Below are positions 7,552-53,219 of a DNA stretch of 64,000 nt, piece by piece. Within the stretch, counting starts at the first letter, position 1; each line of letters opens with the position of its first letter. The stretch is from the NCBI GenBank assembly GCA_030390025.1, contig CM059432.1, forward strand, positions 55,182,001 through 55,246,000, written 5' to 3'. The stretch comes from Squalus acanthias. Lineage: Eukaryota. The translations under genes were made by a program, and so were the position numbers. Below the pieces are notes generated by a model. That model was not told the DNA's origin and did not search any database. It saw nothing but the letters and a program-made list of their open reading frames with translations.

Positions 7552-7576
7552 CTCAGAACGTATTCCGAGCACTGCA

Positions 7577-15879: not shown

Positions 15880-18800
15880 CAATTGTAACTGGGTGTGGCT
15901 CCAAAGGTATAAAAGTAAACAGTATTTGCTGACACACAGAGTGGTCAGCACAGAGTGTCTTAAACAGAGTGCACTTAAACAGAGTGTTGAAACTTGGGAA
16001 TTTGGAGAGAGTGGGAATTCGGAGCAGAGGGGGAAGGAGGTGCTGCTTTTTGCCTCCAATACTTGTAGTGCTTTGTGTTACAGGCAAATATTTAATTTCA
16101 TCTACCTATAACTTAAACTAGATCTGGTAGGTAATTACTTAAAAACTAAACTGTAAGCTAAGTTAATTAAATACATAGGGGTAAAAATTCACTTGGTTGC
16201 GCCTCCCGTTAGCGCCTTAAGAGGGCGCTAATGGGGCGCAAAGCCGCTAACGCCCGGGCGCAGCAATGTTTGCGCCGCTCGAGAACTTAACTTGAGATTG
16301 TGCGGCGGCGCTAAAACTTACCGCTGCGACCACCTGCGCGCGCAGATTGTGACGTCATTCCATGGTGCAACGCCCTTGGGGCGCCCCGTAGCGGAAATTG
16401 AGTGGCGCCCCCTGCCTTACCGCCTGGCGCTTCCAACGACCAGAAGACTGGAACGCTATCAATCGCTGTGGGGCTGGGGGGGGCGCTATTTAAAGGGGGC
16501 CTCTTCCTGTCTTTTATTGTTGGTGGCATTTTTGAACTACGCATTCTGAGAGAGAGAGGGAGAGACTTCTGGAGAGATTCAACGTTGTGTGAAGGAGTTT
16601 TGGGTACTGAGCAGCACTTTGCAGGTTCATTTTGATTTGCCATTCCTTGTATCGATTTAGCAGAGACTGTGGGAGCTGCACTCTGAGCTCTTTGCCTGGT
16701 ACTTTCCATTGTTCTTTCCAGCACATTTGATGTGCAAGTCTCTCCAGGCCGAGATTCAAGGCAGCAATGAACAGGATGTGGATGGAAAGCAAGATTAACC
16801 ATCCCCTTTAAGAACTGGCCCGTGCCATTGTGTGTGTGTTCCATTGCTGACTGACATTACATGAGCTTCGCCAGCGCTCCGAGTTAGTGCCTCACTGCTC
16901 GGCCTTTGCGCCTTAAGAGAGGTGTGCAGCGCCTGCTTTAGCGCTCCACTCACCTCCCGGGGCGGTAAATGTGAAGTTTCCTGTCAGTGCCGATAATTAG
17001 CGCCAGGCGCTAATATTTGCGTCCGGACGATATTTGCGCCCCAAATGGGGCGCGACCTAATTTCTACCCCATAAACTTTAATTAACGAAATAATTGAAAC
17101 AAGGTTATAAAGGGATGGCAGTGCAGGTGGTGGGCCCTGACTGCAGCATGTGGGAGTTTGTGGAGAGCATTGCGATCCCGGATGACCATGTCTGCAGTAA
17201 GTGTCTGCAACTCAAGGAACATCAGCTCAGCGTTGTTGAGCTGGATTCCGAGGTGCAGACATTGCGGGGCATCAGGGAGGAGGAGAGTTATCTGGACACT
17301 TTGAGCCAGGAGGCAGTCACACCCCTTAGGTTAGGTAGTAGTACAGGTCTGGTTAGTGGTCAGGGACAGGAGGGTGTGACTGCAACTCAAGCAGGTAAGG
17401 GGCAGTGCTGGAGGAGCCTCAGCCTTTGCCCTTATCCAACAGGTATGAGGTTCTTGCTGCCTGTGTGGATGAGGGCAAAATCTGCAGGGTGGATGAGCAA
17501 ACTGACCATGGCACTGTGGTACAGTGGGGGGAGTGAAAAGGAATGTTGTAGTGGTAGGGGACAGTATATTCAGGAATATAGATACTGTTCTGTGCAGCCG
17601 CGATCGGGAGTTTCGAAAGCTATGTTGCCTGCCTGGGTTAAGGATATCTCCTCGTGGCTGGAGAAGAATTTGGAGTGGGAGGGGAAGGATCCAGTTGTCG
17701 TGGTCCACATAGGAACCAACAACATAGGTAGAACTAGGAATGAGATTCTAGTTTGAGGAGCTAGGGTCCAAATTAAAAAGCAAAACCTCAAAGGTAATAA
17801 TCTCTGGATTGTTACCTGAGCCACGTGCAAATTGGCATAGGGACAAGCAGATCAGAGAGTTAAATGCGTGGCTCAAACAGTGGTGCAGGAGGAAGGGGTT
17901 TTGATTCATGGGGCACTGGCAGCAGTACTGGAGAAAGGGAGAGCTGTTCCATTGGGACATTCTCCACTTAAACCAGGCTGGGACCAGTGTCCTGGCAAAT
18001 CAAATAACTCAGGGTGTAGATAGGGCGTCAAACTAAAAAGGTGGGGGGGGGGCGGGGCGGGGAGGCGGGGGCAGTCAGGTGAGGGGAAATTTAGAAATAG
18101 AATCATAGCATCATAGAATGGTTACAGCATAGAAGGAGGCCGTTTGGCCCGTCGAGCCCGTGCCGGCTCTCTGCAAGACTCCCACTCCCCTGCCCTTTCC
18201 CCGTAGCCCGGCAATTTCCTTTCTTTCAGGTACTTAATAGAATCATAGAATGGTTACAAATCTAAAGAGAAAAGTGAAGGCAATGGAGCAGTGTAGCGAT
18301 TTGGGTAAAGATAAGCAGAGTGTGACAGGAAGGGACAGAGAGTTTAAAGGTAATCATGCATCAGCGAATAAGATGAAAGCAGGGAATAATGGTAAAAGGT
18401 TAAAACTAAAGGCTCTTTACCTGAATGCACGAAGCATTCGTAACAAGGTAGAACGAATTAGTGGCACAGATAGTGATAAATGTATATGATCTAATAGCCA
18501 TTACAGAGACATGGTTGCAAGGTGACCAGAGTTGGGAACTAAGTATTCCAGGGTACTTGATTTATCGAAAAGACAGGCAGACTGGAACAGGAGTGGGGTG
18601 GGGGGGGGGGGGGCGGGGGGCAGTAGCCCTGATAATTAAGTATGACATAAGGACAGTAGTGAGAAAGGATCTTGGCTCAGAAGATCAGGAAGTAGAATCA
18701 GTATGGGTGGAGATAAGAAATAACAAGGGGCAGAAAACAGTGGTGGGAGTAGTTTATAGGCCCCCTAACAATAGCTATACAATTGGACAGAGTATTAATC

Positions 18801-21126
18801 AAGAAATAATAGGAGCTTGTAACAAAGGTAATGCAATAATCATGGGGGACTTTAATCTGCATGTAGACTGGGCAAATCAAATTGGCAAGGGTAGTCTGGA
18901 GGACAAGTTCATGGAATGTATTCGAGACAGTTTCCTAAAACAATATATCATGGAACCAACCAAGGAACAGGCTATTTTAGATCTTGTTTCATGTAATTCA
19001 ATGAGGTTAATTAGTAAACTTATAGTAAAGGATCCTCTAGGAAAGAGTGATCATACTATGATAGAATTTCACATCGAGTTTGAAAGTGACATTCTTAAGT
19101 CCGACACTAGAGTCTTAAACTTAAACAAAGCCAATTACATAGATATGAGGGGCGAGTTGGCTAAGGTAGATTGGGAAATTAGATTAAAAGGTATGACAGT
19201 AGATAAGCAGTGGCAAACATTTAAAGAAATATTCCAAAATTCTCAACTAATATACATTCCATTGAGAAATAAAACCTCTAGGGGAAAGTGATCCATCTGT
19301 GGCTAACTAAAGAAGTTAAGTATAGTATTAGATTAAAGAGGTGTATAATGTTGCAAAGAATAGTAGTAATAGGGGGAGCTTTAGAAACCAGCAAAGGATG
19401 ACCAAAAAATTGATAAAAGGGAGAAAATAGAACATGAGAGTAAATTAGCAGGAAATATAAAAACAGATTGTAAGAGCTTCTACAAGTATGTAAAAAGGAA
19501 GAGAGTAGCAAAAGTAAGCATTGGTCCCTTAGAGGCTGAGACAGGAGAAATTATATTGGAGAACAAGGAAATGGCAGAGGCTTTAAACAAATATTTTGTA
19601 TCTTTCTTCACAGTAGAAGACACAAAAAGTATAGCAAAAATAGTGGGGAAGCCAAGGGGCTAATGACAGCGAGGAACTTAAACTAATTAATATCAGCAGA
19701 GAAAAAATACTTGAGAAACTAATGGAACTAAAAGCCAACAAATCCCCTGGACCTGATGGCCTACATCCTAGGGTTCTAAAAGAGGTGGCTGTCGAGATAG
19801 TGAATGCATTGGTTGTGATCTTCCAAAATTTCCTAGATTCAGGAAAGGTCCCAGCGGATTGGAAGTTAGCAAATGTAGCCCCACTATTTAAGAAAGGAGG
19901 GAGAGAGAAACCGGGAACTGCAGGCCAGTTAGCCTGACATCAGTCATCGGGAAAATGCTGGAATCCATTATTAAGGAAGTAGTACAGGGTACTTAGAAAA
20001 TCATAGTATGATTCAGCAGAGTCAGCATGGTTTTATGAAAGGTAAATCGTGTTTGACAAATTTATTAGAGTTTTTTGAGGATGTAACTAGCAGGGTAGAT
20101 AAAGTGGAACCAGTGGATGCAGTATATTTGGATTTCCAAAGGGCATCCGATAAGGCGCCACATAACAGGTTGTTAAGCAAGATAAGGGCACATGGGGTTG
20201 GTGGTAATATTTTAGCATGCATAGAGGATTGGTTAAAGGACAGAAAACAGAGTAGGAATAAATGGGTCATTTTCAGGTTGGCAGGCTGTAACTAGTAGGG
20301 TGCCGCAAGGATCAGTGCTTGGGCCTCAGTTATTTACAATCTATATTAATGACATAGATGAAAGGACCGAGTGCAATGTATCCAAGTTTGCTGACGATAC
20401 AAAGCTAGGTGGAAAAGTAAGATGTGAGGAGGACACAAAGAGCCTGCAAAGGGATATAGACAGGTTAAGTGAGTGGGCAATAAAGTGGCAGATGTAGTAT
20501 AATGTGGGGAAATGTGAGGTTATTCACTTTGGTAGGAAGAATAGAAAAACAGAATATTTTTTAAAGGGTGAGAAATTATTAAAGGTTGGTATTCAGAGAG
20601 ATTTGGGTATCTTAGTACAAGAAACACAGAGAGCTAGCATGCAGGTACAGCAAGTGGCAAATGAGAGGGTTGTCCTATGAGGAGAGATTGAGTAGATTGG
20701 GCCTATACACTCTGGAGTTTAGAAGAATGAGAGGTGATCTCATTGAAACATATAGGATTCTGAGCGGGATTGACAGGGTAGATGCTGAGAGATTGTTTCC
20801 CCTGGCTGGAGAGTTTAGAACTAGGGGGCATAGTCTCAAGATAAGGTGCCGGCCTTTTAAGACTGAGATGAGGAGGAATTTCTTCACTTAAAGGGTTGTG
20901 AACCTTTGGAATTCTCTGCCCCAAAGTGCTGTGGATGCTGAGTCATTGAGTATATTCAAGGCTGAGATAGATAGATTTTTGGACTCTAGAGGAATTAATG
21001 GATATGGGGATAGGGCAGGAAAGTGGAGTTGAGGTCGAGGATCAGCCATGATCTTATTCAATGGCGGAGCAGGCTCAAGGGGCCGTATGGCCTACTTCTC
21101 CCCCTAATTCTTATGTTCTTATGTTA
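15880..21126 (+). mobile_element. Near-full-length, degenerate CR1 LINE inserted into an older CR1
   Basis: ORF1 relic ~17114-18035 and ORF2 relic ~18400-21030 with many stops and shifts. ttcttatg tail at ~21107-21125. The flanks rejoin as the old CR1 frame GKIMESLL|KDVIEKHLE. Confidence 0.9.
16178..17070. mobile_element. Non-autonomous Harbinger deletion derivative (893 bp) of the 32547 family
   Basis: The left ~370 bp and right ~330 bp are nearly identical to the ends of 32547-36716. TSD ATA/ATA. Sits in the 5' UTR of a CR1. Confidence 0.92.
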
Positions 21127-24100
21127 AGTAAAGATTCCATTATCTTTCCTACCACCAATGTTAAGCTAACTGGTCTATAATTCCCTGGTGCCAGTCCTCT
21201 GGCACAATTCCCTTTTCTAATGAATTTTTATATTATCTGTATAAATATATATATAATAGTGCCTCTGCTATCTCTTACCTAACTTCTTTTAATATGCGCG
21301 GATGCAATCCATCCGAACCAGGGGTTTTAACTTCTCTTAAGTTTGATTAGTTTACCAATTATCTCCTCCCTTTCTATCCTAAATCTTTTCATAGCTTTTT
21401 GATCTCTTCTTCTAATGTCATGTCACCTTGTTAGTCTCCCTGGTAACTACTGAGGAAAAGTAACTGTTCACTATTTCTGCTATTTTTCTATCATTACCTG
21501 TGAGTTTATCTTGTGCATCTCTTAGTGGCCCTATATTCTGGAAGGGTTGTAGATATTTTAAATATGAAAATAAAGTAGTTAGATTTCAATACAACTTTAC
21601 AGGATCCAGTCCTTTCCATGGGAATTTAATCATTATCAATTCTGAATTTGGTCCAGACATAGTTACATAAGAACATAAGAAATAGGAGCAGGAATAGGCC
21701 ACTTGGCCCCTCGAGCCTGCTCCGCCATTCAATAAGATCATGGCTGAACTAAGGCTCAAAGCCACTTCCCCGCCCGCTCCCCATAACCTTTCATTCCCTT
21801 ATCTTGCAAAAATTTGTCTATCTCCACTTTAAATGTATTTAATGACCCAGCCTCCACAACTCTCTGGGGCAGAGAATTCCACAAATTTACGACCCTCTGA
21901 GAGAAGAAGTTCCTCCTCATCTCAGTTCTAAAAGGGCGACCCTTTATTCTGAGACTGTGCCCCCGAGTTCTAGATTTTCCCATGAGGGGAACCATCCTCT
22001 CTGCATCTACCCTGTCGAGCCCCCTCAGTATCTTATATGTTTCGATAAGATCACCTCTCATTCTTCTAAATTCCAATGAGTATAGGCCCAGCCTGCTCAA
22101 CCTTTCCTCATAAGTCAAACCCCTCATCTCTGGAATTAACCTAGTGAATCGTCTCTGAACTGCCTCCAATGCAAGTATATCCTTCCTTAAATAAGGAGAC
22201 CAAAACTGTACACAGTACTCAAGGTGTGGTCTCACCAATACCTTGTACAGTTGTAGCAGGACTTCCCTGCTTTTATACTCCAACCCCCTTGAAATAAAGG
22301 CCAACATTCCATTTGCCTTTTTGATGACTTGCTGTACCTGCATGCTAACTTTTTGTGTTTCATGCACAAGTACCCCCAGGTCCCTCTGAACTGTAGCATT
22401 TTGTAATCTCCATTTAAATAATAGTTTGCTTTTTTATTTTTCTTGCCAAAGTGGATAACCTCGCACTTTCCCACATTATACTCCATCTGCCAAATGTTTG
22501 CCCACTCACTTAACCTGTCTATATCCCTTTGGAGATTCTTTGAGTCCTCTGCACAACTTGCTTTCCCACCCATCTTTGTGTCATCCGCAAACTTGGCTAC
22601 ATTACACTCGATTCCTTCATCCATGTCATTAATGTAGATTGTAAATAGTTGGGGCCCCAGCACCGATCCTTGTGGCACCCCACTAGTTACCGTTTGCCAA
22701 CCAGAAAATGACCCATTTATCCCGACTCTCTGCTTTCTGTTAGTTAGCCAATTCTCTATCCATGCTAATATATTACCCCCAACTCCATGAGCTCCTATCT
22801 TATGCAGTAACCTTTTATGTGGCACCTTATCAAATGCCTTCTGGAAATCCAAATACACCACATCCACTGGCTCACCCTTGTCCACCCTGCTTGTTACATC
22901 CTCAAAGAATTCCAGCAAATTTGTTAAACATGATTTTCCTTTCCTAAAACCATGCTGACTCTGTTTGACTGCAGTATGTTTTTCTAAATGCCCTGCTACT
23001 GCTTCCTTAATGAAGGACTCCAGCATTTTCCCAAAGACAGATGTTAGGCTAACTGGTCTATAGTTTCCTGCTTTCTGTCTCCCTCCTTTCTTAAATAGGG
23101 GTGTTACATTAGCGGTTTTCCAATCCGCTGGGACCTCTCCAGAGTCCAGGGAATTTTGGTATATTGCAACCAATGCATCCACTATCTCTGCAGCCACTTC
23201 TTTTAAGACCCTGGGATGCAGGCCATCTGGTCCAGGGGACTTATCGTCTTTTAGTCCCATTATTTTACCGAGTATTATTTCCTTAGTGATAGTGATTGTC
23301 TTTAGTTCCCTACTCCCTGTGGCCCCTTGATTATCCATTATTGGGATGTTGTTACTGTCTTCTACAGTGAAGACAGATGCAAAATATTTGTTCAGAGTCT
23401 CTGCCATTTCCCCGTTCCCCATTATTAATTCCCCAATCTCATCCTCTAAGGGACCAATGTTTACTTTAGCTATCCTCTTCCTTTTTATATACCTGTAGAA
23501 GCTCTTACTATCTGTTTTAATGTTTCTTGCCAGCTTACTCTCATAATTCATCTTCTCTCTCTTTATTATTTTTTTAGTCATCCTTTGCTGGTTTTTAAAA
23601 TTTCCCAATCCTCTGGTCTCCCACCAATCTTGGCAACATTGTATGCCTTCGTTTTCAATTTGATACCATCCTTTACTTCCTTAGTTAGCCACGGATGGTG
23701 CTCCCTTCTCTTAAAATCTTTCTTTCTCGCTGGAATATATTTTTGTTGAGAGTTATGAAATATCTCCTTAAATGTCCACCACTGCATTTCAACTTTCTTA
23801 CCGTTTAATTTGTTTTTCCAGTCCACTTTAGCCAGTTCTGCCCTCATGCCATTATAATTGCCTTTGTTTATGATCAGGACACTGGTTTGGGATACAACTT
23901 TCTCACCCTCCAACTGAATTTGAAATTCAACCATGCTATGATCACTCTTTCCTAAAGGATCCTTTACTATGAGATCATTTATTAATTCTGTCTCATTACA
24001 TAGTACCAGATCCAAGATAGCCTGCTCCCTGGTTGGTTCCATTACATACTGTTCTAGGAAAACATCCCAGGTGCACTCTATGAACTCCTCCTCCAGGCTA

Positions 24101-25519
24101 CCATGGCCAATTTGATTTGTCCAATCAATATGGAGATTAAAATCGCCCATGATTATTACCGTACCTTTTTTTATAGGCCTCCATTATTTGTTGATTTATA
24201 CTCTGTCCAACGGCATTGCTACTGTTCGGAGGCCTGTATTCTACGCCCACCAGAGACTTTTTCCCCTTATTATTTTTTATCTCCACCCAAACCGATTCTA
24301 CATCTTGATCTTCTGAGCCAATATCACTTCTCACCACTGCACTGATCAGATCTTTTACCAACAAAGCCACCCCACCTCCCTTTCCTTTCTGTCTATCCTT
24401 CCGTATTATCATATACCCTGGAATATTCAGTTCCCAGCCCTGGTCGCCTTGCAACCACGTCTCTGTATTGGCGATCAGATCATACCCATTTGTATCTATT
24501 TGTGCCGTCAACTCATTTATCTTGTTACGAATGCTGCGTGCATTCAGATATAGAGCTTTTAACTTTGCCTTTTTACCATTTTTCCTTGTTTTGGCCTTTT
24601 TTTCTGTTACACTCTTATTTTTAAACATTCTGTCCCTTCCTGCCACACTCTGGTTATTATTTCCCCCATCTCTAGCCTGCTCTATTGCTTTCTCATTTCT
24701 CATTGACTTTTTATTTTCCCACTCACCTGGATCCTCCCCCCCACTATTTAGTTTAAAGCACTCTCTACAGCCCTAGTTATTCGATTTGCCAGGGCTCTAG
24801 CCCCAGCATGGTTCAAGTGAAGCCCGTCCAAACGGAACAGCTCCCTCTTATCCCAGTACTGGTGCCAGTGCCCCACAAATCGAAACCCATTTCTCCCACA
24901 CCAGTCTTTGAGCCACTCGTTCATTTCTCTGATCTTTTTTACCCTATGTAATTTCGCTCGTGGCTCAGGTAGTAATCCAGAGATTATTACCTTTGTGGTT
25001 CTGCTTTTTAATTTAGCCCCTAGCTGCTCATACTCTCTCAGCAGAACCTCTTTCTTTGTCCTACCTATGTCATTGGTACCTACGTGGACCATGACAACTG
25101 GATCTTCCCCCTCCCACTCCAAGTTTCTCTCCAGCCCAGAGGAGATGTCCTTAACCCTGGCACCGGGCAGGCAACACAGCCTTCGGGACTCACGCTCTTG
25201 GCTGCAGACAACAGTATCTATCCCCCTCACTATACTGTCCCCAATCACTACAACATTTCTTTTTGCTCCCCCCACTTGAATGGCTCCCTGTACCATGGTG
25301 TTGTGGTCAGTTTGCTCATCCTCCCTGTAGTCCCTGGCCTCATCCACACAGGGAGCAAGAATCTCGTACCTGTTGGACAAGGCCAAGGGCTGAGGCTCCT
25401 CCACCACTACCTCCTGGATCCCAGTACCTGCCTTGCTTGTAGTCACACCCTCCTGTCCCTGACCATGGGCCAAATTGGAATTAATTATTCTAGTGGGTGT
25501 GACTGCCTCCTGGAACATA

Positions 25520-26416
25520 GGGGGAGAAATTCAGTCTCGCCCCATTTGGGGCGCAATTATCGGCCAGGCGCAAAGATTAGCGCCTGGCGCTAATTATCGC
25601 CACCGACTGCAAACTTGACTTTTATCGACCCTGGAGGTGATTGGAGCGCTAAATCAGGCGCTTCACACCTGTCTTAAGGCGCAAAGGCCGAGGAGCGAGG
25701 CGCTACCTTAGAGCGCTTTCGAAGCTCATGTAATGTCAGTCAGCAATGGAACACACACACAATGGCACGGGCCAGTTCTTAAAGGGGATGGTTAATCTTG
25801 CTTTCCATCCACATCCTGCTCATTGCAGCCTTGAATCTCGGCCTGGAGAGACCTGCACATCAAATCTGCTGGAAAGAACAATGGAGAGTACGAGGCAAAG
25901 AGCTCAGAGTGCAGCCCCCACAGTCTCTTCTAAATCGATACAAGGAATGGCAAATCAAAATGAACCTGCAAAGTGCTGCTCAGTACCCAAAATTCCTTCA
26001 CACAACGTTGAATCTCTCCAGAAGTCTCTCTCTCTCTCTCTCTCTCAGAATGCGTAGTTCAAAAATGGCACCAACAATAAAAGGCAGGAAGCGGTCACCT
26101 TTAAATAGCGCTCCCCCTTTCCCTTCATGACTGCAGAACGCTCCCCTCAACCTGTCGTTGCTAGCGTCAGGTGGTAAGGCAGGGGGCGCCACTCAATATC
26201 CGCTCCGGGGCGATACCGGGGCGTTGCGCACTCGACTGACGTCACGATCTGCCGGCGCAGGAGATCGTGGCGGTAGTGTTTAGCGCTGCCGCAAAATGTC
26301 TAGTTAATTTTGCGAGCGGCGCAAACTTCGCCGCGCCTGGGCGCTAGATGCTTTGCGCCCCATTAGCGCCCTCTTAAGGCGCTAACGGGAGGCGCAACCA
26401 ACTGAATTTTCCCCCC
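25520..26416. mobile_element. Non-autonomous Harbinger (897 bp), same family as 16178-17070 in the opposite orientation
   Basis: TIRs GGGGGAGAAATTCAG / CTGAATTTTCCCCCC. TSD ATA/ATA. Splits CR1 ORF1 at ...YLDT|MFQE... Confidence 0.92.
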
Positions 26417-30859: not shown

Positions 30860-32440
30860 TACCATAGTTTTCCAAAAATGCGTTAAAAATGTTCCTAAAG
30901 GACTGCAAGAAGTCATTCCTAAATACCACCTCGGGAATGCTATTCCACAATTCAATCACTCTCTGACAAAAATAAATCTTCCACACATTCAACCTCACTA
31001 CCTGCTTCCTCAGTTTAAATATATGGCCCCTTGTTCTACCCAGCTCCATCATCTCAAACAATCTATCCACTTGTATGTTATTGATGCCCTTAATAACTTT
31101 AAAGACCTGAATTAGATCGTCTCTAAGGGGGCGATTTTGCCAGCCCTGGGGAGGCGGATATGGAGGCGAGACTGCCGGGAAAATGGTAAAATTTGGGGGT
31201 GGGTGCCCAACCCGCCTCCATGCCATCTTCCCAGGAGGCGGGTAGCCGTCCCGCACCAGGTCCCGTCTCCTTGGAGGCGGGAAGGGATTAAAGCCTATTA
31301 ACTGCCTGTTAACAGGTAGTTAACAAGCAGAAAATAGGATTATCCCCTTTTTGCCCTCACAAGTGCGGGCTTCCCGAAGGCTCCGAAACCCGCCAGCTCA
31401 GCGAGGCGAGTACTGGGTCTGTGGGGGTCGGGGGGGTGCCAAAGTGTGGTGTGAAGGTAAGTGATGGGTGCAAGAGCGGAAAGGTGAGTATCTGAGGTAA
31501 GTGCAAAGTGTTAGTAAAAGAGTACTTACCTTTGTTTGTCCCTGCAGGCTTCAGTCGGTTTGTATGCGAAGAGTCTCGGACCTCCGCGTTGCAGATGAGA
31601 GATGGCCATTGCATTCTCAGATGCAACAACCATCTCATTTCTGTAAAAGAAAGAAGGTTGATGAGGTCTTGAATTCAAGACCTCATCAAACTACAGAGAA
31701 TGTCACTGTTTGACAGCTTCACAGAGCTGTCAAATGATGACAATTCATCTGTCAAAAATTTTTGACAGATGAAATGTCATACGTTGGCGTTCTCTGCAAC
31801 CAGCTTTCCCTTAATTGGCCAATCAAGGGAAAATACCGTGGGTTGGCCACAAATTGATGGAGGCGGGACATCGACCCGCCAAGCGGCAGTCCCGCCTCCA
31901 ACGCGCCCCCATTAACAAAATCGCCCCTAAGTCACACTTCTCCAGCGATTCCAAACCCAAAGCACAAAGGTCTATCGCCATAACTCAATGCACCTAGGCC
32001 AAACCATCCTCATTACCCTTGTTTGCACCTTCTCTAGAGCCACAATATCCTCGGTGAGGTGGAGGGACCAAAAAGGTACACAATCCTCCAGATGAGGTCT
32101 CACCAAACCATTATATAGCCCTACAATCGGCCCTGTGCACAAATTGGCTGCTGCGTTTCCTACATTACAACAGTGACTACACTTCAAAAAGTAGTTCATT
32201 GACTGTAAAGCACTTTGGGACGTAAGGTGGTCGTGAAAGGTGCTATATAAATGCAAGTCTTTTCTTTCTAGTTTAATACTGAACAGTCTAGGCAATATGG
32301 CTTTGGCCGCAGCCATCTGAAACTGCCCATGAATCTTTAGGGAGCAGTCAATGACCACTCCCAACTCTCTCCCTTTTGGTCACCTTTAACCTGCACCCAC
32401 TCATGTTATACTCTGTACCTGAATTCTGCACAACTATATG
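30860..32440 (-). mobile_element. Old CR1 3' fragment interrupted by a MITE and a SINE/L2 tail (~32130-32265)
   Basis: DLIQVFK...RTRGH...FCQRVIELWNS and LVRPHLEDCVPFWS motifs. Confidence 0.75.
31127..31927. mobile_element. Harbinger-type MITE inserted into a CR1 fragment
   Basis: TIRs GGGGCGATTTTG / CAAAATCGCCCC. TSD TAA/TAA. Confidence 0.85.
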
Positions 32441-33063
32441 CATAACAATGATCAGCGCCTTTATCCACTGAATCTGTGAAGGGAGACCCACTAAGAAAAG
32501 GACAGCTTCTGTTGAATTTGTGAGCCTTGCTTTGTGGAGTGTTTTAGGGGTAAAAATTCAGTTGGTTGCGCCTCCCGTTAGCGCCTTAAGAGGGCGCTAA
32601 TGGGGCGCAAAGCCGCTAACGCCCGGGCGCAGCGATGTTTGCGCCGCTCGGGAACTTAACTAGAGATTGTGCGGCGGCGCTAAAACTTACCGCTGCGACC
32701 ACCTGCGCGCACAGATTGTGACGTCATTCCATGGTGCAACGCCCTTGTGGCGCCCCGGAGCGGAAATTGAGTGGTGCCCCCTGCCTTACCGCCTGGCGCA
32801 TCCAACGACCGGAAGACTGGAACGCTATCAATCGCTGTGGGGCTGGGGGGGGCGCTATTTAAAGGGGGCCTCTTCCTGTCTTTTTCTGTGGTCGACATTT
32901 TTGCACCACTCGTTCTGAGAGAGAGAGAGAGAGAGAGATTCGGAGAGAGAGAAAGAGAGACTTCTGCATTGACTCAACGCTTTGTGAGGTAGTTTTGCCG
33001 ACTGATCCTAACTTCGCTGGTACTTTAGTTGCTGTCCTTCATTACTTTGCTTGCAAAGAGAAT

Positions 33064-34224
33064 ATGGGGGCTGCACTGATTGGGGGCGTCGTCCTGCTCC
33101 AGCTGAATCGGAGGATACAGAGACGCAGAGAGAGAGTGGCAATGATGGCCAGACGGAGGAGGGCCAACAGGCGTATGTACAGGAGAGCTTACCCTCCCAG
33201 GGTATATCGTGAACAGCTCTCCTACATTCATATGTCTGAGGAGCTGTGTTTGCGAAGGCTGCGATTCAGCAAGGAGGTGGTCACTGAGCTCTGCCACCTG
33301 CTGCAGCCAGATCTGCAGCCTCAACTGAGGTCCAGGACATCTCTGTCGGTGGCAGTGAAGGTCACAGTGGCTCTCAACTTTTACGCTACTGGCTCATTTC
33401 AAGCTGCTGCTGGGGACCTCGCCAATATCTCCCAGTTCGCGGTGCATTGCTGCATCCGGCAGGTCACAAATGCCCTCTTTAAAAGGAGACGAGAGTTCAT
33501 CTCTTTCCCCATGACCCCAGACAAGCAGCGTGACCGCGCTCTGGGCTTTGCGAGGGTAGCGGGCTTCCCCATGGTGCAGGGCGCCATTGACTGCACGCAT
33601 GTGGCTTTGCGTGCTCCGCATCAGAATGCCGAGGAATTCCGGAACAGAAAGGGGTTCCATTCCTTGAATGTTCAGTTGGTCTGTGACCACAGACAGCTGA
33701 TACTCGCTGTCAATGCCCACTATCCTGGCAGCTGCCACGATGCTTTTATTCTGCGCCAGACTACTGTGGCAGAACTTTTCGAGGCACCGCATCAGCCAGT
33801 CGGTTGGCTTCTCGGGGACAAGGGGTATGCATTGAGCACCTGGCTGATGACACCGCTCCGTACGCCCAACACCCCTGCTGAGCTGCGGTACAATGAGAGC
33901 CATCAAGCTACCAGGAACATAATTGAGCGCACAATCGGCGTGCTGAAGCAACGGTTCCGCTGTCTCGACCATTCTGGAGGAGCCCTGCAGTACTCGCCTG
34001 AGCGAGTATCCAACTTCGTAGTCGTGTGCTGCATGTTGCATAACATGGCAATCCTCAGGACCCAGCCAATGCCACCAGGCCTTGGAGCACCACCAGAGGA
34101 GGAGGAGGAAGAGGAGGAAGAGGACGAGGAGGATGATCATCAGCAGCACCAAGGCGGGAGGGCGGCCCACAATGGTCAAACTGCAAGGGCCGTCCATCAA
34201 CGGCTAATAGCAAGCCGCTTCTAG
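33064..34224 (+). CDS. Harbinger DDE transposase (HARBI1-like), intact, 386 aa from the first ATG
   Basis: Uninterrupted ORF with an HTH region (VTVALNFYATGSFQ) and the catalytic motifs GAIDCTHV, LLGDKGY and IERTIGVLKQRFRCL, followed by CCMLHN and an acidic tail. Confidence 0.93.
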   Translation: MGAALIGGVVLLQLNRRIQRRRERVAMMARRRRANRRMYRRAYPPRVYREQLSYIHMSEELCLRRLRFSKEVVTELCHLLQPDLQPQLRSRTSLSVAVKVTVALNFYATGSFQAAAGDLANISQFAVHCCIRQVTNALFKRRREFISFPMTPDKQRDRALGFARVAGFPMVQGAIDCTHVALRAPHQNAEEFRNRKGFHSLNVQLVCDHRQLILAVNAHYPGSCHDAFILRQTTVAELFEAPHQPVGWLLGDKGYALSTWLMTPLRTPNTPAELRYNESHQATRNIIERTIGVLKQRFRCLDHSGGALQYSPERVSNFVVVCCMLHNMAILRTQPMPPGLGAPPEEEEEEEEEDEEDDHQQHQGGRAAHNGQTARAVHQRLIASRF

Positions 34225-34536
34225 GGCCCCTGCTGTGGAAATGGCTTCTGCCATTGCTAACAACATTAATGAACCCAGCACGCAACCCCTAAGCCGGCCA
34301 AGGCACCAATAATTCCAACCACCAACCATGTATATTTTGAATACAGAAACTTATTTATTTTACAAACTCTGTGTGTGTCAATTCCTCATGACAAACTCAT
34401 AGAAATAAACACAAAAAAACAGTCAATAACATAACTGGTTCTCACAACCTGGAGATAATGTCCAAAACACTAAACAAAAGTTGGACCATGAACCTCGACC
34501 TTTAATAAAAAAATGACCAGCATTTTGTCACACCTC

Positions 34537-36356
34537 CTACTTTTTGCCCTTCGAGGGTGATCTCCTTCCCTTGCGCACTTCCCCCCTTCTAACCCTACTG
34601 CTCCTCCGTAATGGGACCTCAGTGGCTGCAGCAAGGCTGGTGGAAGGCTGCTGCTCGTCAGACCCTGACACTGCAGATGCCCCTGAAGGACGGCCTCGAC
34701 CAGTTCTGGGCCTGGAGGGCCCGGCTGCAGACTGCACCAACTCTGCATGGGCGGCAGCAGTCTGTCCTACAGGCGGTGGCAAGTGCAGTGGAGAAGTGAC
34801 AGTGTTGGCAGCAGGAATGCTGTCATCGTGAGAGAGGACAGCAACTCCCTGCTCGCCCGACACACTGGCACTCCCACGGGGCAGCACTTCAGCATCCGGA
34901 GCAATCTGCTGGAGAACAGATTGCTGGCCTGCTGCGGCGCGGTGACAGCTCCGGGGACATGTGCACGAACCATCGAGGTTGGCAGCAGTCTGTGCTTGCG
35001 TGGCCTCAATCTGAGTCTGCATGAGAGCAGTCAGAGATGGGATCACGGCAGCCAGTGACTGAATTGCAGCACTAAGCGTTAGTGTGGCATCCGCCTGTGC
35101 TACAGCGAAGTGCTCCACACTCCTTGCCAGTGACTCAATGCATTCGGGCACCCTTCCCACTGCACCCATGAGCTCAGTGTGCATGCCCACCGCCTGGGTG
35201 TTCATTTCTGCGATCAGCCGCTCCTCCTCTGCGTCCATTGCAGTAGGAGTGTCTGGCATACTCTCCCTCTGGGGAGAAGGCCCCCGTTCTTCCCTACCCC
35301 CATGGCGTTGCTGCAGCCCGCTGGGTCCTGGAGCTTCACCCTCATCAGACCCTTCCTCCCTGCTCCCCTCCAGGGAAGGCGTGTTCCCAGTGTGGGCATG
35401 GGCTTCCTCGGGAGAGGGTGGCACTGATGCTCCGGCTTCCTCTTCCTCCTCGGCTGCAGCATCACTCCCAGTGGCAGCTTCAGGGCCCGTCTCCTCAGCT
35501 GGTGAATCACCATCTGAAAGCAGGGAGGTACAAGAGTGGCTTTAGCGTGAGGACAGGGTGGCAGTAAGGGAGGAATAAGTGCAGCGAGTTAGCAAGTTGG
35601 ATTGAAAGTGTCAAAGGCTGGTGTTGTGAGGGACAAGTGGAAGGACAGAGGACAAAAAGGTGATGACCTTACCATTGCTGTCCACAACGGGGTCGGCGTC
35701 TCCAGTGGCGACGGGACCGATCACCCGGCTTGCCACAATCCTGTGGACGCGCTCCTCAAGATCGCTGAGGGGTTGCAGCTGAGGCCGCCCTCCACCTGTC
35801 CGTTGCTGCTGTCTCCTATTATGCGCCAGCTTGGCCTGCAAGAAAAAGGACAGCATCTGAGTAAATATACAGCCATGGTCTTGCCTGATGTGCCTCCCAT
35901 AGGTGAATAGCCCTTACTGTATGCAGCCATGGTCTTGCCTGATGTGCCTCCCATAGGTGAATAGCCCTTACTGTATGCAAAGTGTGGAATGTGTGTGTGT
36001 GTTTCATGAAAGGGCCATAGGTGTTGGATGAGTGTTGTGCATTGGGGTTTTAAGACCCTCTGGCCATAGAGTGAGGTTGAGATGGAGGGATGGAGAGGTA
36101 TTGAGAAAAAGCCACTCACCCTGACGACCCGAGTGAGGTCGTTGAACTTTTTGCGGCATTGAGTATGGGTCCTGGGCACCATGCTCCTGGAGGAGACGCT
36201 CTGAGCCACCTCCCTCCACACTCTTCTGAACTCGCGTGGCAAAGGCCTCCTGCCACTCTCAGGGAAGAGCATACATCTTCTGCGCTCCACCGCGCCAACC
36301 AGAGCATCCAAGGCCCGCTCGGTGAAGCGATGAGCTCGTTCTCTCACCTTCTCCAT
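34537..36356 (-). CDS. Harbinger Myb/SANT-like DNA-binding partner protein, 3 exons (36356-36120, 35835-35673, 35513-34537), predicted 458 aa
   Basis: Exon 1 MEKVRERAHRFTERALDALV...WREVAQSV...RTHTQCRKKFNDLTRVVR is a NAIF1/MSANTD-type Myb domain. Canonical gtgagt/ttgcag and gtaagg/tttcag junctions. Exon lengths 237+163+977=1377 nt give one open frame to TAG. Exon 2 carries the family TGGG motif. Confidence 0.85.
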
Positions 36357-38342
36357 CCTTGGCAGCAAAATGGATTCACAGGTCTCTCCAGGCCGAGATT
36401 CAAGGCTGCAATGAGCAGGGTGTGGCTGGGGAGCAAGTTGGCCCCCCCCCGCTTTAAGAAGTGGCCGGCGCCAGTGTGTCTGTGTTCCCTCGCTAACTGG
36501 CAGCAGCTGTGCTGCGCTCGCGCGCTGAGTTAGCGCCTCACTGCTCGGCCTTTGCGCCTTAAGACAGGTGTGCAGCGCCTGATTTAGCGCCCCACTCACC
36601 TCCCGGGGCGGTAAAAGTGAAGTTTCCAGTCAGTGCCGATAATTAGCGCCAGGCGCTAATATTTGCGTCCAGACGATATTTGCGCCCCAAATGGGGCGCG
36701 ACCTAATTTTTCCCCCTTAGTGTTTGGAGAGGATGATGATCAAGCAAAGTTTTGCACATGTGACCTGAGAGTTGCTTAATTAGAAATTGTAATATTTCAA
36801 ATGTAACATTAAGGTACCAAATGTACTGAGTGTAACAATCTATGATCCATCCAAAAGAAGGCACCTGGAGTAATGGAAAAGGTCCTCTGTTTACGACCAG
36901 GACGTATCTCTTATCTCTGCCTTGCCTATATAAGCCCTAGTTCCATGTCCTGATTCTACAAAAATACAAATGGGCCTCTGCTGGCCTGGGCTTGCCCCCT
37001 CGGCTTTGCCTTCTCTCCCAGGACCTACCTGTAGGCTGGCTCGGGGCTGAGATTCGTCAGACCGTGATCGGTGCGTTGCATCAGAGCGCCTGTTTGGTGC
37101 CCGCAGCTCACCACTTTTATTCAAATAAAGCCCAAGACCAAATTTGGCTTGGGCTTCAGGCCGGCATGGACCGGCACCGCTCTGTCTTGCCACCCATTTT
37201 GAGGAGAAGTCTAATTTCTCCCCTGCAGTATTTGATTAACCTTTCTACCATGCCCTTGCCGTCATCTATAATTCTGTCTAAGTCACCTTACAATGGTCCA
37301 TTTGTTCTCTGACCAACCTCTGTCTCCTAACAGAAGCAAAAAATACTTCCCCATTATTTTCACCAGGTTCAATTACCCTCCATACTAGATTCATTTTAGC
37401 TTACCTAATGTTTTTTCTGTTAATTCCTTTTTATAACTTTCTCCATCCAAAATGCAATTCAAATAAATTTTTTTGAATGTAAGGCTGGTAATTTCCTTGG
37501 AGCCGCTCCCGCTCCGCCGCCGTAACTTCACTGGACCACCACACTTCCGCCAATGTTATAGTGGTGGAGCAGGAGCACCTCTGAGGAAATTCCCGGCGTA
37601 AGTTGCCTAACTAAGTTCCTATAAGGCCAGTCTGGCTTTTCCTTATCACAAACTCTTCTCCTCATAGGGATATATATGACTTCACAACATCGCAGGATTC
37701 CTTTGCGTGCTGCAATAATCCTCACCCAGCTCCCTCTCCCATGATTTGTCTATCTTTATTTCTGTAGAATGAAAGCGAACAGCAGCCTGGCAGCATCAGT
37801 TTCAGAGATTACTGTGCCTGTACAATCATTCCTTTGATAAGTCAGATCTGTCAATTTGTTGTAAGTCTTTCCAATCTCTTTAATTGAGAAAGACAAATAA
37901 AGTTAAGGCCCATAATGCAAGGCTCCCATGAAGGCTGAAAAGAATAGAAGAGAAGGCAAGATAAATCAGGAAATACTGATTAGGTAACAACATGCTTGGA
38001 TTTTAGAAGCCTGTTGATTATTAGGGAAGGAAAGACTGAAGGAGCTAACTAGTTCCATAGTTTTCAGGCCCAAGGCAAACAATGAGTTAAAGCTACTGAA
38101 CTACATCTCTCAGGTGTTGCAGGAAATGTGCCTCCTGTTATTGAGTGACAGAAAGACACTGGTTTTGGAAGTCACAGGGAAACATATGAGCTGTTCACTC
38201 ATTCCGCCTGTTAGCGATTCATAAGGTAAGGAGCCGAGTGATGGAACAAATAAACAAGACGTAAAAACATCTGATGAAGGTCAATAATGTGCTTGTTGTG
38301 GTGTGACACATTTACTCATTCTGCCTTCCTTGATTGTTCCAG

Positions 38343-38441
38343 TTGTACAGAGAATGGACACAGTGACCGAAGGAATGGAAACATCGCAAAAAAGTTATAC
38401 GGAAAAACTAACTGCCGTCGAGACTGACCTGAAGAAATTAG
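38343..38441 (+). CDS. COLEC12: Collectin-12 internal exon (99 nt, juxtamembrane start of the coiled coil)
   Basis: ttgttccag acceptor and gtaaac donor. Encodes (V)VQRMDTVTEGMETSQKSYTEKLTAVETDLKKL, matching the remembered COLEC12 segment VVEKMDNVTGGMETSRQTYDDKLTAVESDLKKL. Phase 1/1, compatible with the next exon. Confidence 0.92.
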
Positions 38442-42359: not shown

Positions 42360-42790
42360 CTGTGATACAGCTATCTCCTCCCAGGGCCTTCTCCAAGTGG
42401 TCTTGGATGGCTTCCTGTCACCCTGCAGGGAACAGTACAGCCCACCTTCGTTGAACGGTCACCACCAAGGCCTCCAGTGCAGCATCCGAGAACCATCGTG
42501 CTCACTCCCTTGCTGAGCCATATCTTCAGCCAGACTGACAATGATGTGCTGTTGCAACAAAGCATCTCCCCTTTAAGTAGCGCACCCGATATTACCCCAC
42601 CCCCCCCCTCACCACCGTTGAGCGCTAAGCCAATCAGCAGTGCGTTTAGTGCTGAGATCAGCGCTCCAATCATTATAATGAGCAGGCAGCATGAATTTTG
42701 CATGCTGTCTGGACCACTTTCAACGGGCGCAGGCAAATAGCGCTGGCCCTTGACACGGCCCGTTTTCAGGCCTAATCCAATTTCTAGGCC
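42360..42790 (-). mobile_element. Harbinger end fragment with a relic of Myb exon 1
   Basis: Minus strand reads ...RWFSDAALEALVVTVQRRW... TIR-like aatttctaggcc at ~42779-42790. Confidence 0.6.
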
Positions 42791-46235: not shown

Positions 46236-47119
46236 AAGTGTGATTGGTCATTCTACAGACATTGGCAGGTGTTACTTAACTATATTTTTTCTCTCTTAAA
46301 ATGTTGTGCTCATCAAGGTGAATTCTGGGGAATGGAACTCTGTTGACAGTATTAAGTGCTCCCAGTCAGGTAGACCACAACTAGATAAGGAGTATAACTG
46401 CCTCTACTCTGCCCCAATAACATGCCTCAACCCTAGCAGAACATCCCCACTGAATCATTGTGACAATTTTCCATTTCTTGCACCAACCATCCTTTAGCCT
46501 GTCTAAGAGAAGCTGTCAATTAGTGGCAAATTAGGGACAATTTTGTTTCATCTGCCTTTACCCACTCGGAATTGGATTGAGACTGCCTAAACTGATTTCA
46601 CATCGAATCGTTTTAGCCAGCAGACAGAAGAGACTTTGGGGGAGAAATTCGGTTGGTTAGTGCCTCCCGTTAGCGCCTCCAGGGGGCACTAACGACTTAC
46701 CGCCCGGGTGCGGCGATGTTAGCGTCACCGGCGAAATTCACCTGGCGGTTTGCGGTGGTGCTAAACACTACCGCCACGATCTCCTGCTCCCGGAGATCGT
46801 GATGTCATCCTGCCGCGCATCGCCCCGGTAGCACCCCGGACCAGAAATTCATTTTCGCCCCCTGCCTCAGCGCCTGCCATGAGGAACGACAGGTAGAGGA
46901 GGCGGTTTGCAGTCGGCTGGGAGCTGCAGGAGCGCTATTTAAAGGCGTGCACTTGCTGGGTTTTTTTGTCGGCAAACAATGCTGCCTTGTCACTTTGACA
47001 GAAGCAGACGGGCGTTTTGACCCATTTGAGGTTTTCCTGCTTGAAGGGGTTTTGCTCCTGACCAAAATTTATCAGGTTCATTTGTCTTACTTTTATTACT
47101 GCAACATTTCCAACACTTA

Positions 47120-48380
47120 ATGGGGGCTGTACTGGCACAGGACCTCGCTCTCCAGCTTCACCGTGGGAGGCGGTTCAAGAAGGGGGCTCACCACCCCCTT
47201 CTCAAGGGCAATTAGGGATGGGCAATAAATGCTGGCCTTGCCAGTGACACCCACATCCCATAAACAAATTTTTTAAAAAGGCAGCGGAGGCAGAGGGAAA
47301 GATTGGAAAACGTGGCCAGAGGGAGGAGGGCCAACAGGAGGTCTTACCCACCCAGGGTATACCGGGAGCAGTTCTCCTACATTCATCTCTCAGAGGAGCA
47401 GTGCCTTAGAAGGCTCCGCTTCAGCAAGGAGGTGGTCACAGAGCTCTGTCACATCCTGCAGCCAGACCTCCAGCCTCAACTCAGGACCAGGACGTCTCTC
47501 TCAGTGGCAGTGAAGGTCACAGTCGCTCTCAATTTCTACGCCAGCGGCTCCTTCCAAGCTTCAACGGGATATTGCAAACATTTCACAGATCGCCGTCCAT
47601 TGCTGCATCCGGGAGGTCACAGATGCTCTGTACAGAAGGAGAAGGGAGTACATCTCATTCCCCATGACCAGAGAGAAACAGCATGGACGCTCATGTGGCT
47701 TTGTAAGGATAGCGGGCTTCCCCATGGATCAGGGCGCCATTGACTGCACCCACGTGGCATTGCGAGCACCTCATCACAATGCAGAGGTATTCCGCAACCG
47801 TAAAGGCTACAACTCTCTGAACGTACAGTTGGTGTGTGACCACAGACAGTGCATCCTCGCCGTCAATGCCCGCTATCCTGGCAGCAGCCACGATGCATTC
47901 ATCCTGCGACAGACTGGTGTTCCAGCACTCTTCCAACCACCACATGAAGCTCGCAGCTAGGTGCTCAGAGACAAAGGTTATCCACTCGCCACCTGGCTAA
48001 TGACACCCCTCCGCAACCCCAACACTCCTGCTCAGCACGCATACAGTGAGAGCCATAGCGCCACCAGGAACCTGATCGAACAGACTATCGCTGTGCTAAA
48101 GCAACAGTTCCGCTGCCTTGACCGCTGTGGAGGAGCCCTGCAGTACTCCCCTGATCGAGTCTCTGTTTTGATTGTTGTGTGCTGCATGCTGCACAACCTG
48201 GCCATTCTGAGGGCCCATCCATTGGCACCAGGGATTGCAGGTCCACCTCAGGAGGAGGACGAGGCGGAGGAGGAGGAAGATAAAGAGGAGGAGGAGCAGC
48301 AGCAATGTAGGAGGGAGCCACTCAATGTTGCTTCTGCAAGGGTCGTTCGTGAGCGCCTCATTACAATGCGCTTACAATAA
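47120..48380 (+). pseudogene. Harbinger transposase pseudogene
   Basis: Closely similar to 33064-34224 but disrupted by a LINE-tail insertion (~47173-47283), a frameshift near 47570, an in-frame TAG at 47958-47960 and LGDKG changed to LRDKG. Confidence 0.9.
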
Positions 48381-48650
48381 ATGACAGAACACATGGCGTT
48401 TGTGCAGAACAACCACATCATTACAGCCAGCTTGCAGCCCCTATCTCAAATGAGAAACATCACAAAATTTACGACATCGAAATAAATATTTATTATTCTG
48501 CACAACTCTCTCTTACCAAACACAACCAATAATAAACAAACACAACAATTTATGAACAAACACAACTGGTTCTTAGCAAATGGAACAATATATTTATAAA
48601 AACATCAACTTCTGTACACACACTCCCCCCATTTGCTATTAACATTTTAT

Positions 48651-50578
48651 TTACTGGGCCTTCTTCAATGATTTCCCTCCCCTTTGCAGTTCCCCACTCC
48701 CAACCCTACTGCTCCTCTGTAATGTGGCCCCAGTGGCTGCAGCAAGGCTGGTGGAAGGCTGCTGAGTCTGGGAGCCAGAGACTGCAGATGGCCTTGCAGG
48801 ACACCCTCGACCAGCTCTGGGCCTGGAAGGCCAGGCTGCAGACTGCACCACCTCAGCATGGGCGGCAGCAGTCTGGGATGGCTGGGTTACAGGCTGCGGC
48901 AACTGCAATGGCGGAGTGGCAGTGGTGGGAGCAGGAATGCTGTCATCCTGAGAGAGGACAGCACTTTCCTGCTCGACCGACACACTGCCACTCCCCCGGG
49001 ACAGAACCTCAGCATCCGGAGCAATCTGCTCGAGCACAGATTGCTGGCCTGCTGCGGCACTGTGAGATCCCTGGTGAACAGTGGGCGACACAGCGATGAT
49101 GGCAGCAGTCAGCGCTTGCGTGGCATCAATCTGAGACTGCATGAGACCAGTCTGAGATTGGATGCCAGCAACCACTGACTCCGTTACAGCACTAAGCCGT
49201 TGCGTTGCCTCGGCCTGTGCTGCAATAGCTGCTGCCACCTCACCCGTGACACGTGGCATGAGGTCTGGGCCCCCACGGTCTCTGGGTCCCCACGGTCTCT
49301 CTGCGAGTCAGCCATCCTCTGCAAAATGCCAAGGATGGGCTCAAAGGTTTGCGCAGAGATGAGAGCAATGCTGGAGGTGGACTCCTCCATGCTCCTAGCC
49401 AGTGCACCCATGCTCTCAGGCACCCTTGCCATTGCACCCATGAGCTCAGTATGCATGCTCAGCGCCTGTGTGGTCATCGCCTCGACATCGAGGTCCTCAT
49501 CCAAGTCCTGTGCAACAGAACTTGTGCGCGCACTCACCCTCCGGGGGGATGGCCCTCGAGCTTCCCTTCCCCCATGTCATTGCTGCAGCCCGCTGGGTCC
49601 CGGAGCTTCACCCACGTCAGAGCCATTTCCTCTGCTCCCCTCCAGCGACTACGTGGTCCCATTATTGGACCTCTCGCCCTCGGGAGGCACAGGCAGTGAG
49701 GCTCCGGCTTGGTGTTCCTCCTCCTCCTCTCCCGCATCGCTGCCACTGGGAGGCTGAGGGACAGGCTGGTCAGATGGTGGCTGATTATCTGAAAGCATTG
49801 GGGCACAAGAGTGGGTTTAACATCAGGGGATGGGGCAGGAAGGGAGCAAGGAATGGAGACAGTATACTTAGATGGAAAGTGGGAAGGGCTTGTGTTGTGA
49901 GGGGGAAGTGGTATGAGAGAAGAGGGAGAGGTGATGAACATATCGTTGTTGTCCCCAGGGGGGTCAACCTCTCCGACTGCCACAGCGCCTACGATCTGGG
50001 CCCCAATGATGCGGCCCACTCGCTCCTCCAGCTGTGTAAGGGGATGCAGCTCTGCCTGACCTCCTCCCGTGCATTGTTGCCCCCTCCTGTTATGAGCAAG
50101 CTTGGCCTGCAAGAAAAAGGACAGCGTGTGAGTGAGTGTACAGCCATGTGTTTGGCAGATGTGCCTACCATAGTTGAATAGCTGTTAATGTATGCAAGGC
50201 GTGGGATGTGGATGTGACTTTTAGTAGATGGGCATAGTTGGTGGGTGAGTGTTGGGGATTTGGCGGTTTATACCATCTGTGCACAGAGTGAGGTTGAGAT
50301 GGTGGGATGTCGAGGTTTTTGAAGCATGTACTCACCCTGACCACCTGAGTGAGGTCGTTGAACTTCTTGCGGCACTGGGTGTGAGTACTTTGGACCACGC
50401 TTTTGGTCGAGACGTACTGGGCCACCTCCCTCCACATCCTTCTGAACTCCCGGGGCAATGGCCTCCTGCCAGTGTCTGGGAACAGCACTGCCCGTCGGGG
50501 TTCCACAGCCGCAAACAGAGCCTCCAATGCCTGGTCACTGAACCGGCGAGCTCTCTCCCTGGGCCTCTGATCAGCCAT
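48651..50578 (-). pseudogene. Harbinger Myb/SANT partner pseudogene (exons 50578-50336, 50106-49944, 49788-48651)
   Basis: MADQRPRERARRFSDQALEAL...QCRKKFNDLTQVVR. The exon-2 donor reads AT instead of GT. There is an early TAG in exon 3 and a frameshift at the short duplication near 49265-49300. Confidence 0.85.
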
Positions 50579-51194
50579 GAGATTTGTGGTTGATGAATTG
50601 CAGCTCCTTGCAGGCCCAGGTCACAAGCAGCAATGATCAGAGTGAGGCTGTGCAGCATGATGGAGCCTCTCCTTTAAGAACTGGAAGGCGCCAGTCTGTC
50701 TGAGTACTTGTAATTGACAGCGCCGGAACTTGAGTAGCGCTCTGCGGTAGCGCCCCGCTCCCCGACGTTAGCGCCCTAAGGGAAGTGTGTAGTGCTCCAC
50801 TTCCTTCTAGGGGTGCTAAAACTGAATTTCACTGGTGCTAAAGTTTGCGCCCGGGCAATGTTAGCGCCCCAAAATGGTCGATACTGAATTTTTCCCCCCT
50901 TTATTTTTCATTGCCTTGTTTTTAGGGGTCCATCAACACCCAGTGTCCTGAAAAATAATGTGGCTTCTGATTGGTCTGTAAAAGTTTCAGTTACCACTTT
51001 TCAAGCCAGATAGTGAATGTGCTGGGCTCTGTGTGGGAACTATTCCCACTAATGATTATTATACAAGCTTAGTGTCCATTAAACAGATAGGAGGGGAAAA
51101 TTGCATCAACCACATCTGCAAAACTGTTTCTCCTTTAATATCATTGTGATTACCCATTCTGTTATTGCCCATACATGTACCCTATCTTTTGTAG

Positions 51195-53102: not shown

Positions 53103-53219
53103 TTGGGTCTGGGATTGGGTTTGTAGTCAGAGCATCGAGGTCGATGGAGTTCAGGATCGGGGTTGAGTCCGGGAATTGCAGGGGTGGGGAGGGAGATCTG
53201 GGGTTGGGGCTGGGAGCGG

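Follow-up and report, generated by a model that had tools for sequence, protein, structure and literature searches.

A full-length, two-gene PIF/Harbinger element from an abundant family in the shark Squalus acanthias

Harbinger3_DR of zebrafish, a PIF/Harbinger transposon rebuilt from a consensus, has been shown to transpose (PMC3016246, PMC2836001). Natural vertebrate copies are described from sea kraits, where Laticauda colubrina has 269 intact copies of Harbinger-Snek and both genes of the single intact copy in L. laticaudata are covered by RNA (PMC8437027), from the coelacanth, where LatiHarb1 makes up 9.3% of the genome, and from the newt Pleurodeles, with a recent burst and Myb/Harbi transcripts (PMC3787270, PMC5741667); Harbinger transcription is also reported in teleosts, and a spontaneous Harbinger insertion in a nematode. 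For cartilaginous fish, a survey of fish Harbingers gives none in the elephant shark and calls for other members of the group to be examined (PMC9179366), and DNA transposons account for 1.58% of the grey reef shark genome (PMC12498223). Here, we analyse 64,000 nt of Squalus acanthias DNA (assembly GCA_030390025.1, CM059432.1, forward-strand positions 55,182,001–55,246,000; hereafter the window, with positions counted from its first base), in which a preliminary description had placed a complete two-gene Harbinger transposon of 4,170 bp. With a probability of roughly 0.7, we read this element as a full-length copy, with an open transposase frame and a predicted open spliced helper frame, from a PIF/Harbinger family of very high abundance; the copy likely owes its intactness to low divergence and a slow mutation clock, and not to present activity.

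Anatomy of the element and its two genes

The element lies on the plus strand at 32547–36716, with ends, target duplication and both genes in place and with steps in depth at both ends in DNA sequencing runs. TTA stands on either side (32544–32546 and 36717–36719) and the terminal inverted repeats (TIRs), at 32547–32562 on the plus strand and 36701–36716 on the minus strand, agree at 11 of 12 and 13 of 16 bases, so that the repeats and duplication recognised in the preliminary description are both confirmed; nearly the same left end recurs on an 893 bp miniature inverted-repeat transposable element (MITE) elsewhere in the window. These TIRs are shorter than the 25–50 bp quoted as usual for Harbinger (PMC9179366). 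Inward of them lie a CpG-rich left subterminal region (32563–32846) and a right one (36467–36700), each holding 10 GCGCC motifs (shuffle means 3.1 and 2.1, the count being reached in 0 of 200 shuffles on either side), against no excess in the element interior (6 motifs versus 7.0 expected from shuffles). These motifs are candidate sites for the Myb-like protein, which would bind there. The CpG observed/expected ratio is 1.05 in the left 354 bp and 0.78 in the right 357 bp, compared with 0.50 for the whole window, in keeping with the earlier remark that the subterminal CpGs are largely undecayed.

The six bases that follow the right TTA read AAACAC on the minus strand, and AAACAC forms the left half-site of AAACACCWGGTCTTT, the target of Harbinger3_DR (PMC3016246). 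Five insertions in the window carry 3 bp duplications (TTA, ATA, ATA, TTT and TTG), and all five match AAACAC at no fewer than 4 of 6 bases, against a background of 8% per site in what is a small sample; at 32547–36716 the match is 6 of 6.

The transposase gene (33064–34224, plus strand) encodes 386 amino acids with no internal stop and matches Pfam DDE_Tnp_4 at 136.7 bits over profile positions 1–158 (cut-off 24.8), with D176, D252 and E288 as the three acidic residues; the uninterrupted frame and catalytic triad reported earlier are upheld, the triad lying in conserved columns. In an alignment of 153 homologues of 300–460 amino acids, drawn from 252, the protein agrees with 56 of the 57 columns conserved at 80% or more, D176 and D252 included, and E288 is the majority residue (111/153), a test that is lenient because many of the 153 homologues are themselves decayed. 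It differs from the homologue majority at Q51, S93, T233, A256 and H378; at A256, 64% of homologues have P. The closest relatives are elasmobranch proteins named 'putative nuclease HARBI1', with 71% identity over 79% of the length to Pristiophorus and 60% to Narcine and Mobula, and the ten best matches are all elasmobranch. No relative of at least 90% identity was found, and exact look-up of the 386-residue protein returned nothing from the protein collection. In a tree of 30 chosen top matches the transposase falls within a clade of sharks and rays (support 100/99, and 98/99 for the nearest starred set). Against solved structures, sequence searches returned nothing better than weak matches (E 0.014 and 0.073 at best), with no convincing relative among them.

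Converging on this gene from the minus strand is a Myb/SANT helper gene with exon 1 at 36120–36356 (79 codons, with F11, W47 and F71) and predicted exons 2 and 3 at 35673–35835 and 34537–35513, the last encoding an acidic linker, a helical segment and a basic C-terminus in open frame. Exon 1 matches Pfam Myb_DNA-bind_5 at 36.1 bits (cut-off 21.7). Joined through GT–AG introns of 284 and 159 bp, the three exons give 1,377 nt, or 458 amino acids and a stop, which agrees with the preliminary description as far as a predicted splice model can. The open spliced frame is weak evidence, because many alternative GT/AG pairs also give frames of more than 400 amino acids, and we rejected it as proof of the exon model for that reason. 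The homologues bear on the model in another way. The spliced helper aligns gap-free over residues 5–113, through exon 2, to an automated Pristiophorus gene model (P0007), where the unspliced form ends at 79; alignment reaches residue 86 of a Narcine protein, and it crosses the first junction in P0007 and in P0253. Donor 1 and both acceptors are also conserved in a decayed full-length sister element in the window (46638–50899, plus strand, TTT duplication), in which coding parts are about 75% identical and donor 2 is mutated.

Measured against this sister, the ratio of replacement to silent change (dN/dS) is 0.19 for the transposase, 0.15 for helper exon 1, 0.25 for exon 2 and about 0.67 for exon 3, the last value coming from two overlapping alignments. 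Ratios of about 0.14–0.25 in the transposase and helper exons 1 and 2 point to past function of both in this lineage, and the predicted splice model is thus backed by homologues and by purifying selection. The second junction is less secure, because exon 3 has no Pfam match and no homologue among 8,000 candidates; a search for exon 1 within longer proteins gave 1 match among 153. The helper introns (35514–35672 and 35836–36119) are 73–76% identical to the sister's 49780–50340, as against only about 36–43% at silent sites of exons 1 and 2, which may reflect constraint on the introns or conversion between subfamilies. Intron 1 also contains a 54 bp tandem duplication (35866–35979) that is absent from the sister.

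Between the convergent genes lies a shared 3' interval (34225–34536) with AATAAA at 34404 and 34504 on the plus strand and at 34354–34359 on the minus strand; if these serve as poly(A) signals, the 3' ends of the two transcripts would overlap. A DDE_Tnp_4 transposase with three acidic residues, a separate Myb/SANT gene, a 3 bp duplication, TIRs, an extended target preference and a dispersed repeat with non-autonomous derivatives are all found here, and every structural test run places the element in the PIF/Harbinger superfamily.

Family size, expression and competing explanations

To place the element within its family we used contigs of four sequencing runs out of 23 that were listed for it (X1 and X2, DNA runs of one organism; X8, probably RNA; and X15), aligned to 32001–37400 at 90% likeness. 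These are Logan contigs and not raw reads, so missing joints or private letters are not read as absence. Median summed depth in coding bins is 6.2e5 in X1 and 7.3e5 in X2, compared with 11–110 in four unique-flank bins, giving ratios of 7e3 to 6.5e4. Summed contig depth is no copy number, and because overlapping contigs inflate it we take from it an order of magnitude only, of thousands to tens of thousands of copies. The element ends are 2.4–2.7 times deeper than the genes and loose contig ends match MITE interior, as expected if MITEs are also abundant. One X1 joint, from 36717 to 32547, connects the right end of one element with the left end of another, with 10 unrelated letters in between, and marks two elements lying head to tail somewhere in the genome.

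Compared with the dominant contigs listed, the element differs at 21 of 2,207 letters in X15 (0.95%) and at 19 of 1,816 in X8 (1.05%). Among the 40 of 262 variant positions listed, seven have another letter in at least 93% of the depth of both DNA runs; three of these near-private changes are silent and four are replacements (Q187 in the transposase; K3, E186 and S322 in the helper). None falls on D176, D252 or E288, or on F11, W47 or F71, among the variants listed. At transposase A256, P accounts for 77% and 37% of the depth in the two DNA runs. The preliminary description had pointed to all three catalytic residues, and these are kept, but elsewhere the copy has at least four near-private amino acid changes and A256 in place of the usual P.

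How often such a copy should stay open by chance was estimated by a neutral simulation, with assumed indel rates, in which both frames and eight splice bases were scored. Both frames and splice sites are kept in 52–68% of copies at 0.2% divergence, 19–40% at 0.5%, 5–16% at 1% and 0–3% at 2%, and many open-frame copies are therefore expected in the family. The shark mutation rate reported for the epaulette shark is 7e-10 per base per generation (interval 1.4–14.1e-10; PMC10587355), at which 0.2% divergence corresponds to about three million generations and 1% to about fourteen million. As 0.2% is also the nucleotide diversity of the epaulette shark (PMC10587355), a segregating insertion is compatible with these figures.

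The contigs of X8 cover the element evenly, introns included. One runs for 79 bases in exon 1 and then 170 in intron 1, and another spans intron 2 without difference, though with fewer than 31 letters on each side; depth does not drop across these introns. No helper splice joint is found among the 15 joints listed of 189. The spliced form is not dominant in X8, where a minor one could be hidden. The depth ratio of flank repeat to element is 65 in X8 and 2–5 in the DNA runs, and because this profile is unlike DNA, X8 is probably RNA; read-through from host introns would explain its element sequence. At the insertion itself, no empty-site joint across 32547–36719 is found among the joints listed for X1 and X2, where a joint at single-copy depth would rank below the rows listed (174 being unlisted). 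One X2 contig of single-copy depth (6.5) runs from the unique right flank 22 bases into the element's right end. This hints that the X2 sample, possibly the one from which the assembly was made, carries the filled allele.

The alternative proposed in the preliminary description is a competent autonomous copy whose family still transposes in the shark germ line and mobilises nearby MITEs, and it was partly borne out: the element is structurally complete and MITEs with matching ends lie close by, but competence itself did not follow and no spliced transcript was seen. Both frames are open, the transposase keeps its three catalytic residues and agrees with 56 of the 57 conserved columns, and the ends are 95–98% identical to those of a MITE. 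The near-identical relatives that such a proposal calls for do exist, many contigs being at least 99% alike and few changes strictly private. Against this, no splice joint was listed in X8, whose contigs enter intron 1 and cross intron 2, no empty site appears among the joints listed, the copy carries the near-private Q187, K3, E186 and S322 and the unusual A256, and both frames are expected to be open by chance in many copies. We therefore regard it as unlikely that the copy is an active member of a moving family, and equally doubtful that it encodes a working transposase and helper and that its family, with full-length copies numbering some ten thousand, still transposes in the shark germ line. 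Several points nonetheless weigh against the reading we prefer. In X1, 14,711 of 79,976 contigs (flank repeats included) are at least 99% alike to the element, only about three of its changes look strictly private and its subterminal CpGs are intact; the simulation depends on assumed indel rates, and the clock on a mutation rate that was measured in a different shark lineage and whose confidence interval spans a factor of ten; and the repeat profile of X8 allows some transcription of the element. The copy may thus be as young as ordinary allelic variation, in a family that may not have stopped moving.

Other origins of the intact frames are less probable still. Recent horizontal transfer into the shark lineage followed by a burst, as for Harbinger-Snek in sea kraits, would fit the low divergence within the family, and runs labelled with five other organisms contain 59–67% of the element's sampled words. 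The one such run examined, X15 (organism F), has a depth of about 40, no unique flank and a repeat ratio of 5.2 against 4.9 in DNA of the organism of X1 and X2, and as it reads as trace shark DNA and not as a second host, we rejected these runs as evidence of transfer. With the transposase nested among shark and ray sequences, its ten best matches all elasmobranch, and older sister families in the same window, transfer is very improbable. An assembly artefact, in which open frames arise as the consensus of collapsed copies, might be suspected from a copy number high enough for mis-polishing, but this copy has letters that almost no other copy has (33622 and 36349), which a consensus would not, and the single-copy X2 contig runs from unique flank into its right end; we give this explanation little credence indeed. 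It is hardly conceivable that the two genes are a domesticated, host-selected pair like HARBI1 and NAIF1, for all that the frames are open and relatives carry the name 'putative nuclease HARBI1' in databases. Domesticated genes (HARBI1, NAIF1, MSANTD) are single copy and lack transposon ends, whereas here the inverted ends and duplication are intact, depth is very high with thousands of near-identical copies, and near-private changes are as often replacement as silent (4/7).

On the reading we prefer, the family likely spread by cut-and-paste in a shark lineage. By analogy with Harbinger3_DR, the GCGCC-rich subterminal arrays would be the binding sites of the helper, which would also bring the transposase into the nucleus. 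The short inverted ends would be where the DDE transposase cuts, and insertion would take place at an A/T-rich triplet beside an AAACAC-like half-site, with duplication of 3 bp. Both proteins would be needed and MITEs would move in trans, as for Harbinger3_DR and Ping (PMC2836001), and the 0.7–0.9 kb elements with matching ends would be moved in this way. Copies would decay neutrally after insertion; the copy at 32547–36716 has not yet gained a stop or frameshift, and its sister is already broken.

Related elements, other repeats and the host gene

The 893 bp non-autonomous element (16178–17070, plus strand, ATA duplication) has ends 95–98% like those of the full-length element, an interior 93–98% like a second MITE of 897 bp, and only about 65% likeness to the full-length element in that interior. 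The preliminary description calls it a derivative; we rejected a simple deletion origin, in that only its ends match and its interior is that of another MITE subfamily. It is better described as a mosaic, a plausible transposition substrate whose structure suggests recombination or template switching between elements. The 897 bp element (25520–26416, minus strand) also has an ATA duplication, with ends about 81% like the full-length element, and a more distant non-autonomous element of 732 bp (15113–15844, plus strand) has a TTG duplication. The sister element, 10 kb from the intact one, has a frameshift and a stop in its transposase, a broken helper and the loss of donor 2.

Short elements with related GGGC...TTT inverted ends lie at 12548–13605 and 59144–59949, with flanking triplets that do not match as duplications, and minus-strand remnants of more distant Harbinger helper genes lie at 2–1429, where the same exon layout is kept, and at 42363–42510. 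At 32133–32267, just outside the intact element, is a high-copy tail, which we take to be SINE-like (from a short interspersed nuclear element); at other loci, its 3' end directly abuts the left end of the element in several contigs, and it is possibly a favoured landing site. Elsewhere in the window are a long terminal repeat (LTR) retrotransposon-like element (7256–11690), whose 281 bp terminal repeats are 96% alike and whose long gag/pol-like frames are interrupted by frameshifts, and two copies of a long interspersed nuclear element in inverted orientation (17100–25500), about 75–85% alike and bracketed by two inverted MITEs.

The first host exon in the window (38343–38441, plus strand) is an internal exon of 99 bp between AG and GT, 1.6 kb downstream of the element, and is followed by coiled-coil and collagen exons. 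A short-motif search of the window found no lectin exon and no host exon upstream of 38343, so the element would lie in a host intron if the upstream exons fall outside it. We take the host gene to be COLEC12-like from its motifs; its Atlas match is weak, to a cluster named SCARA3 in which 23% of members have COLEC12 Pfam domains. Of the COLEC12 intron given in the preliminary description, the downstream internal exon was found, no upstream exon was found in the window, and the name is tentative. A G-rich minisatellite of 16–18 bp units (52900–56700), about 3.5 kb long and with extreme GC skew, also lies inside a host intron.

Comparison with known Harbinger systems

A literature search, from which subscription journals for the most part, Repbase, Dfam and shark-genome supplement tables fell outside, found no paper on a two-gene shark Harbinger family and, within the same limits, none in which an unmodified vertebrate Harbinger was assayed. 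A 2024 study reportedly surveyed numerous natural DNA transposons in human cells and may bear on this. The main text of a study of insertion polymorphism in the coelacanth (PMC4255032) does not contain the word 'Harbinger', and the comparison literature further includes PMC9392472, PMC13668399 and bioRxiv 2024.09.09.611499. The present finding puts on record that a shark has a large Harbinger family with two genes. The element adds a new member, from a shark, to a known superfamily and makes a fair candidate for assay. If its proteins are active, they would offer a natural vertebrate PIF/Harbinger pair for work on mechanism and structure and a target-biased integration tool; if this copy's proteins work and the family still transposes, vertebrates would have a Harbinger system that is natural and not reconstructed, with its own MITE donors and an extended target motif, in a lineage with genomes described as retrotransposon-driven. 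The single copy adds little beyond a convenient template, and intact, transcribed vertebrate Harbingers are already published; with 269 intact Harbinger-Snek copies in one sea krait (PMC8437027), the rarity implied by the preliminary description was overstated.

Likened by description, Harbinger3_DR shares with the shark element a DDE transposase and Myb-like helper, a 3 bp duplication and an extended target preference with the AAACAC half-site. It differs in that it was reconstructed, whereas the shark copy is natural and known here from its sequence, and Harbinger3_DR and Harbinger3N_DR have CWG duplications, unlike the TTA, ATA, ATA, TTT and TTG of the shark elements. Harbinger-Snek is alike in its large vertebrate expansion, intact two-gene copies, short non-autonomous derivatives and many intronic insertions (PMC8437027), but it was acquired horizontally and an intact copy has both of its genes covered by RNA, while the shark family nests among elasmobranchs and no spliced RNA was seen. 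The closest sequences are the elasmobranch 'putative nuclease HARBI1' proteins (P0001, P0002, P0004 and others), whose names are automated and of which many are truncated copies. Rice Ping/Pong and mPing resemble the shark system in the requirement for two proteins, the TTA/TAA-type duplication and MITEs moved in trans, and differ in being plant elements with a 9 bp target preference and proven natural activity (PMC2836001). Coelacanth LatiHarb1 and the newt Harbingers, again likened by description, are high-copy families in large, slowly evolving vertebrate genomes, as the shark family would be.

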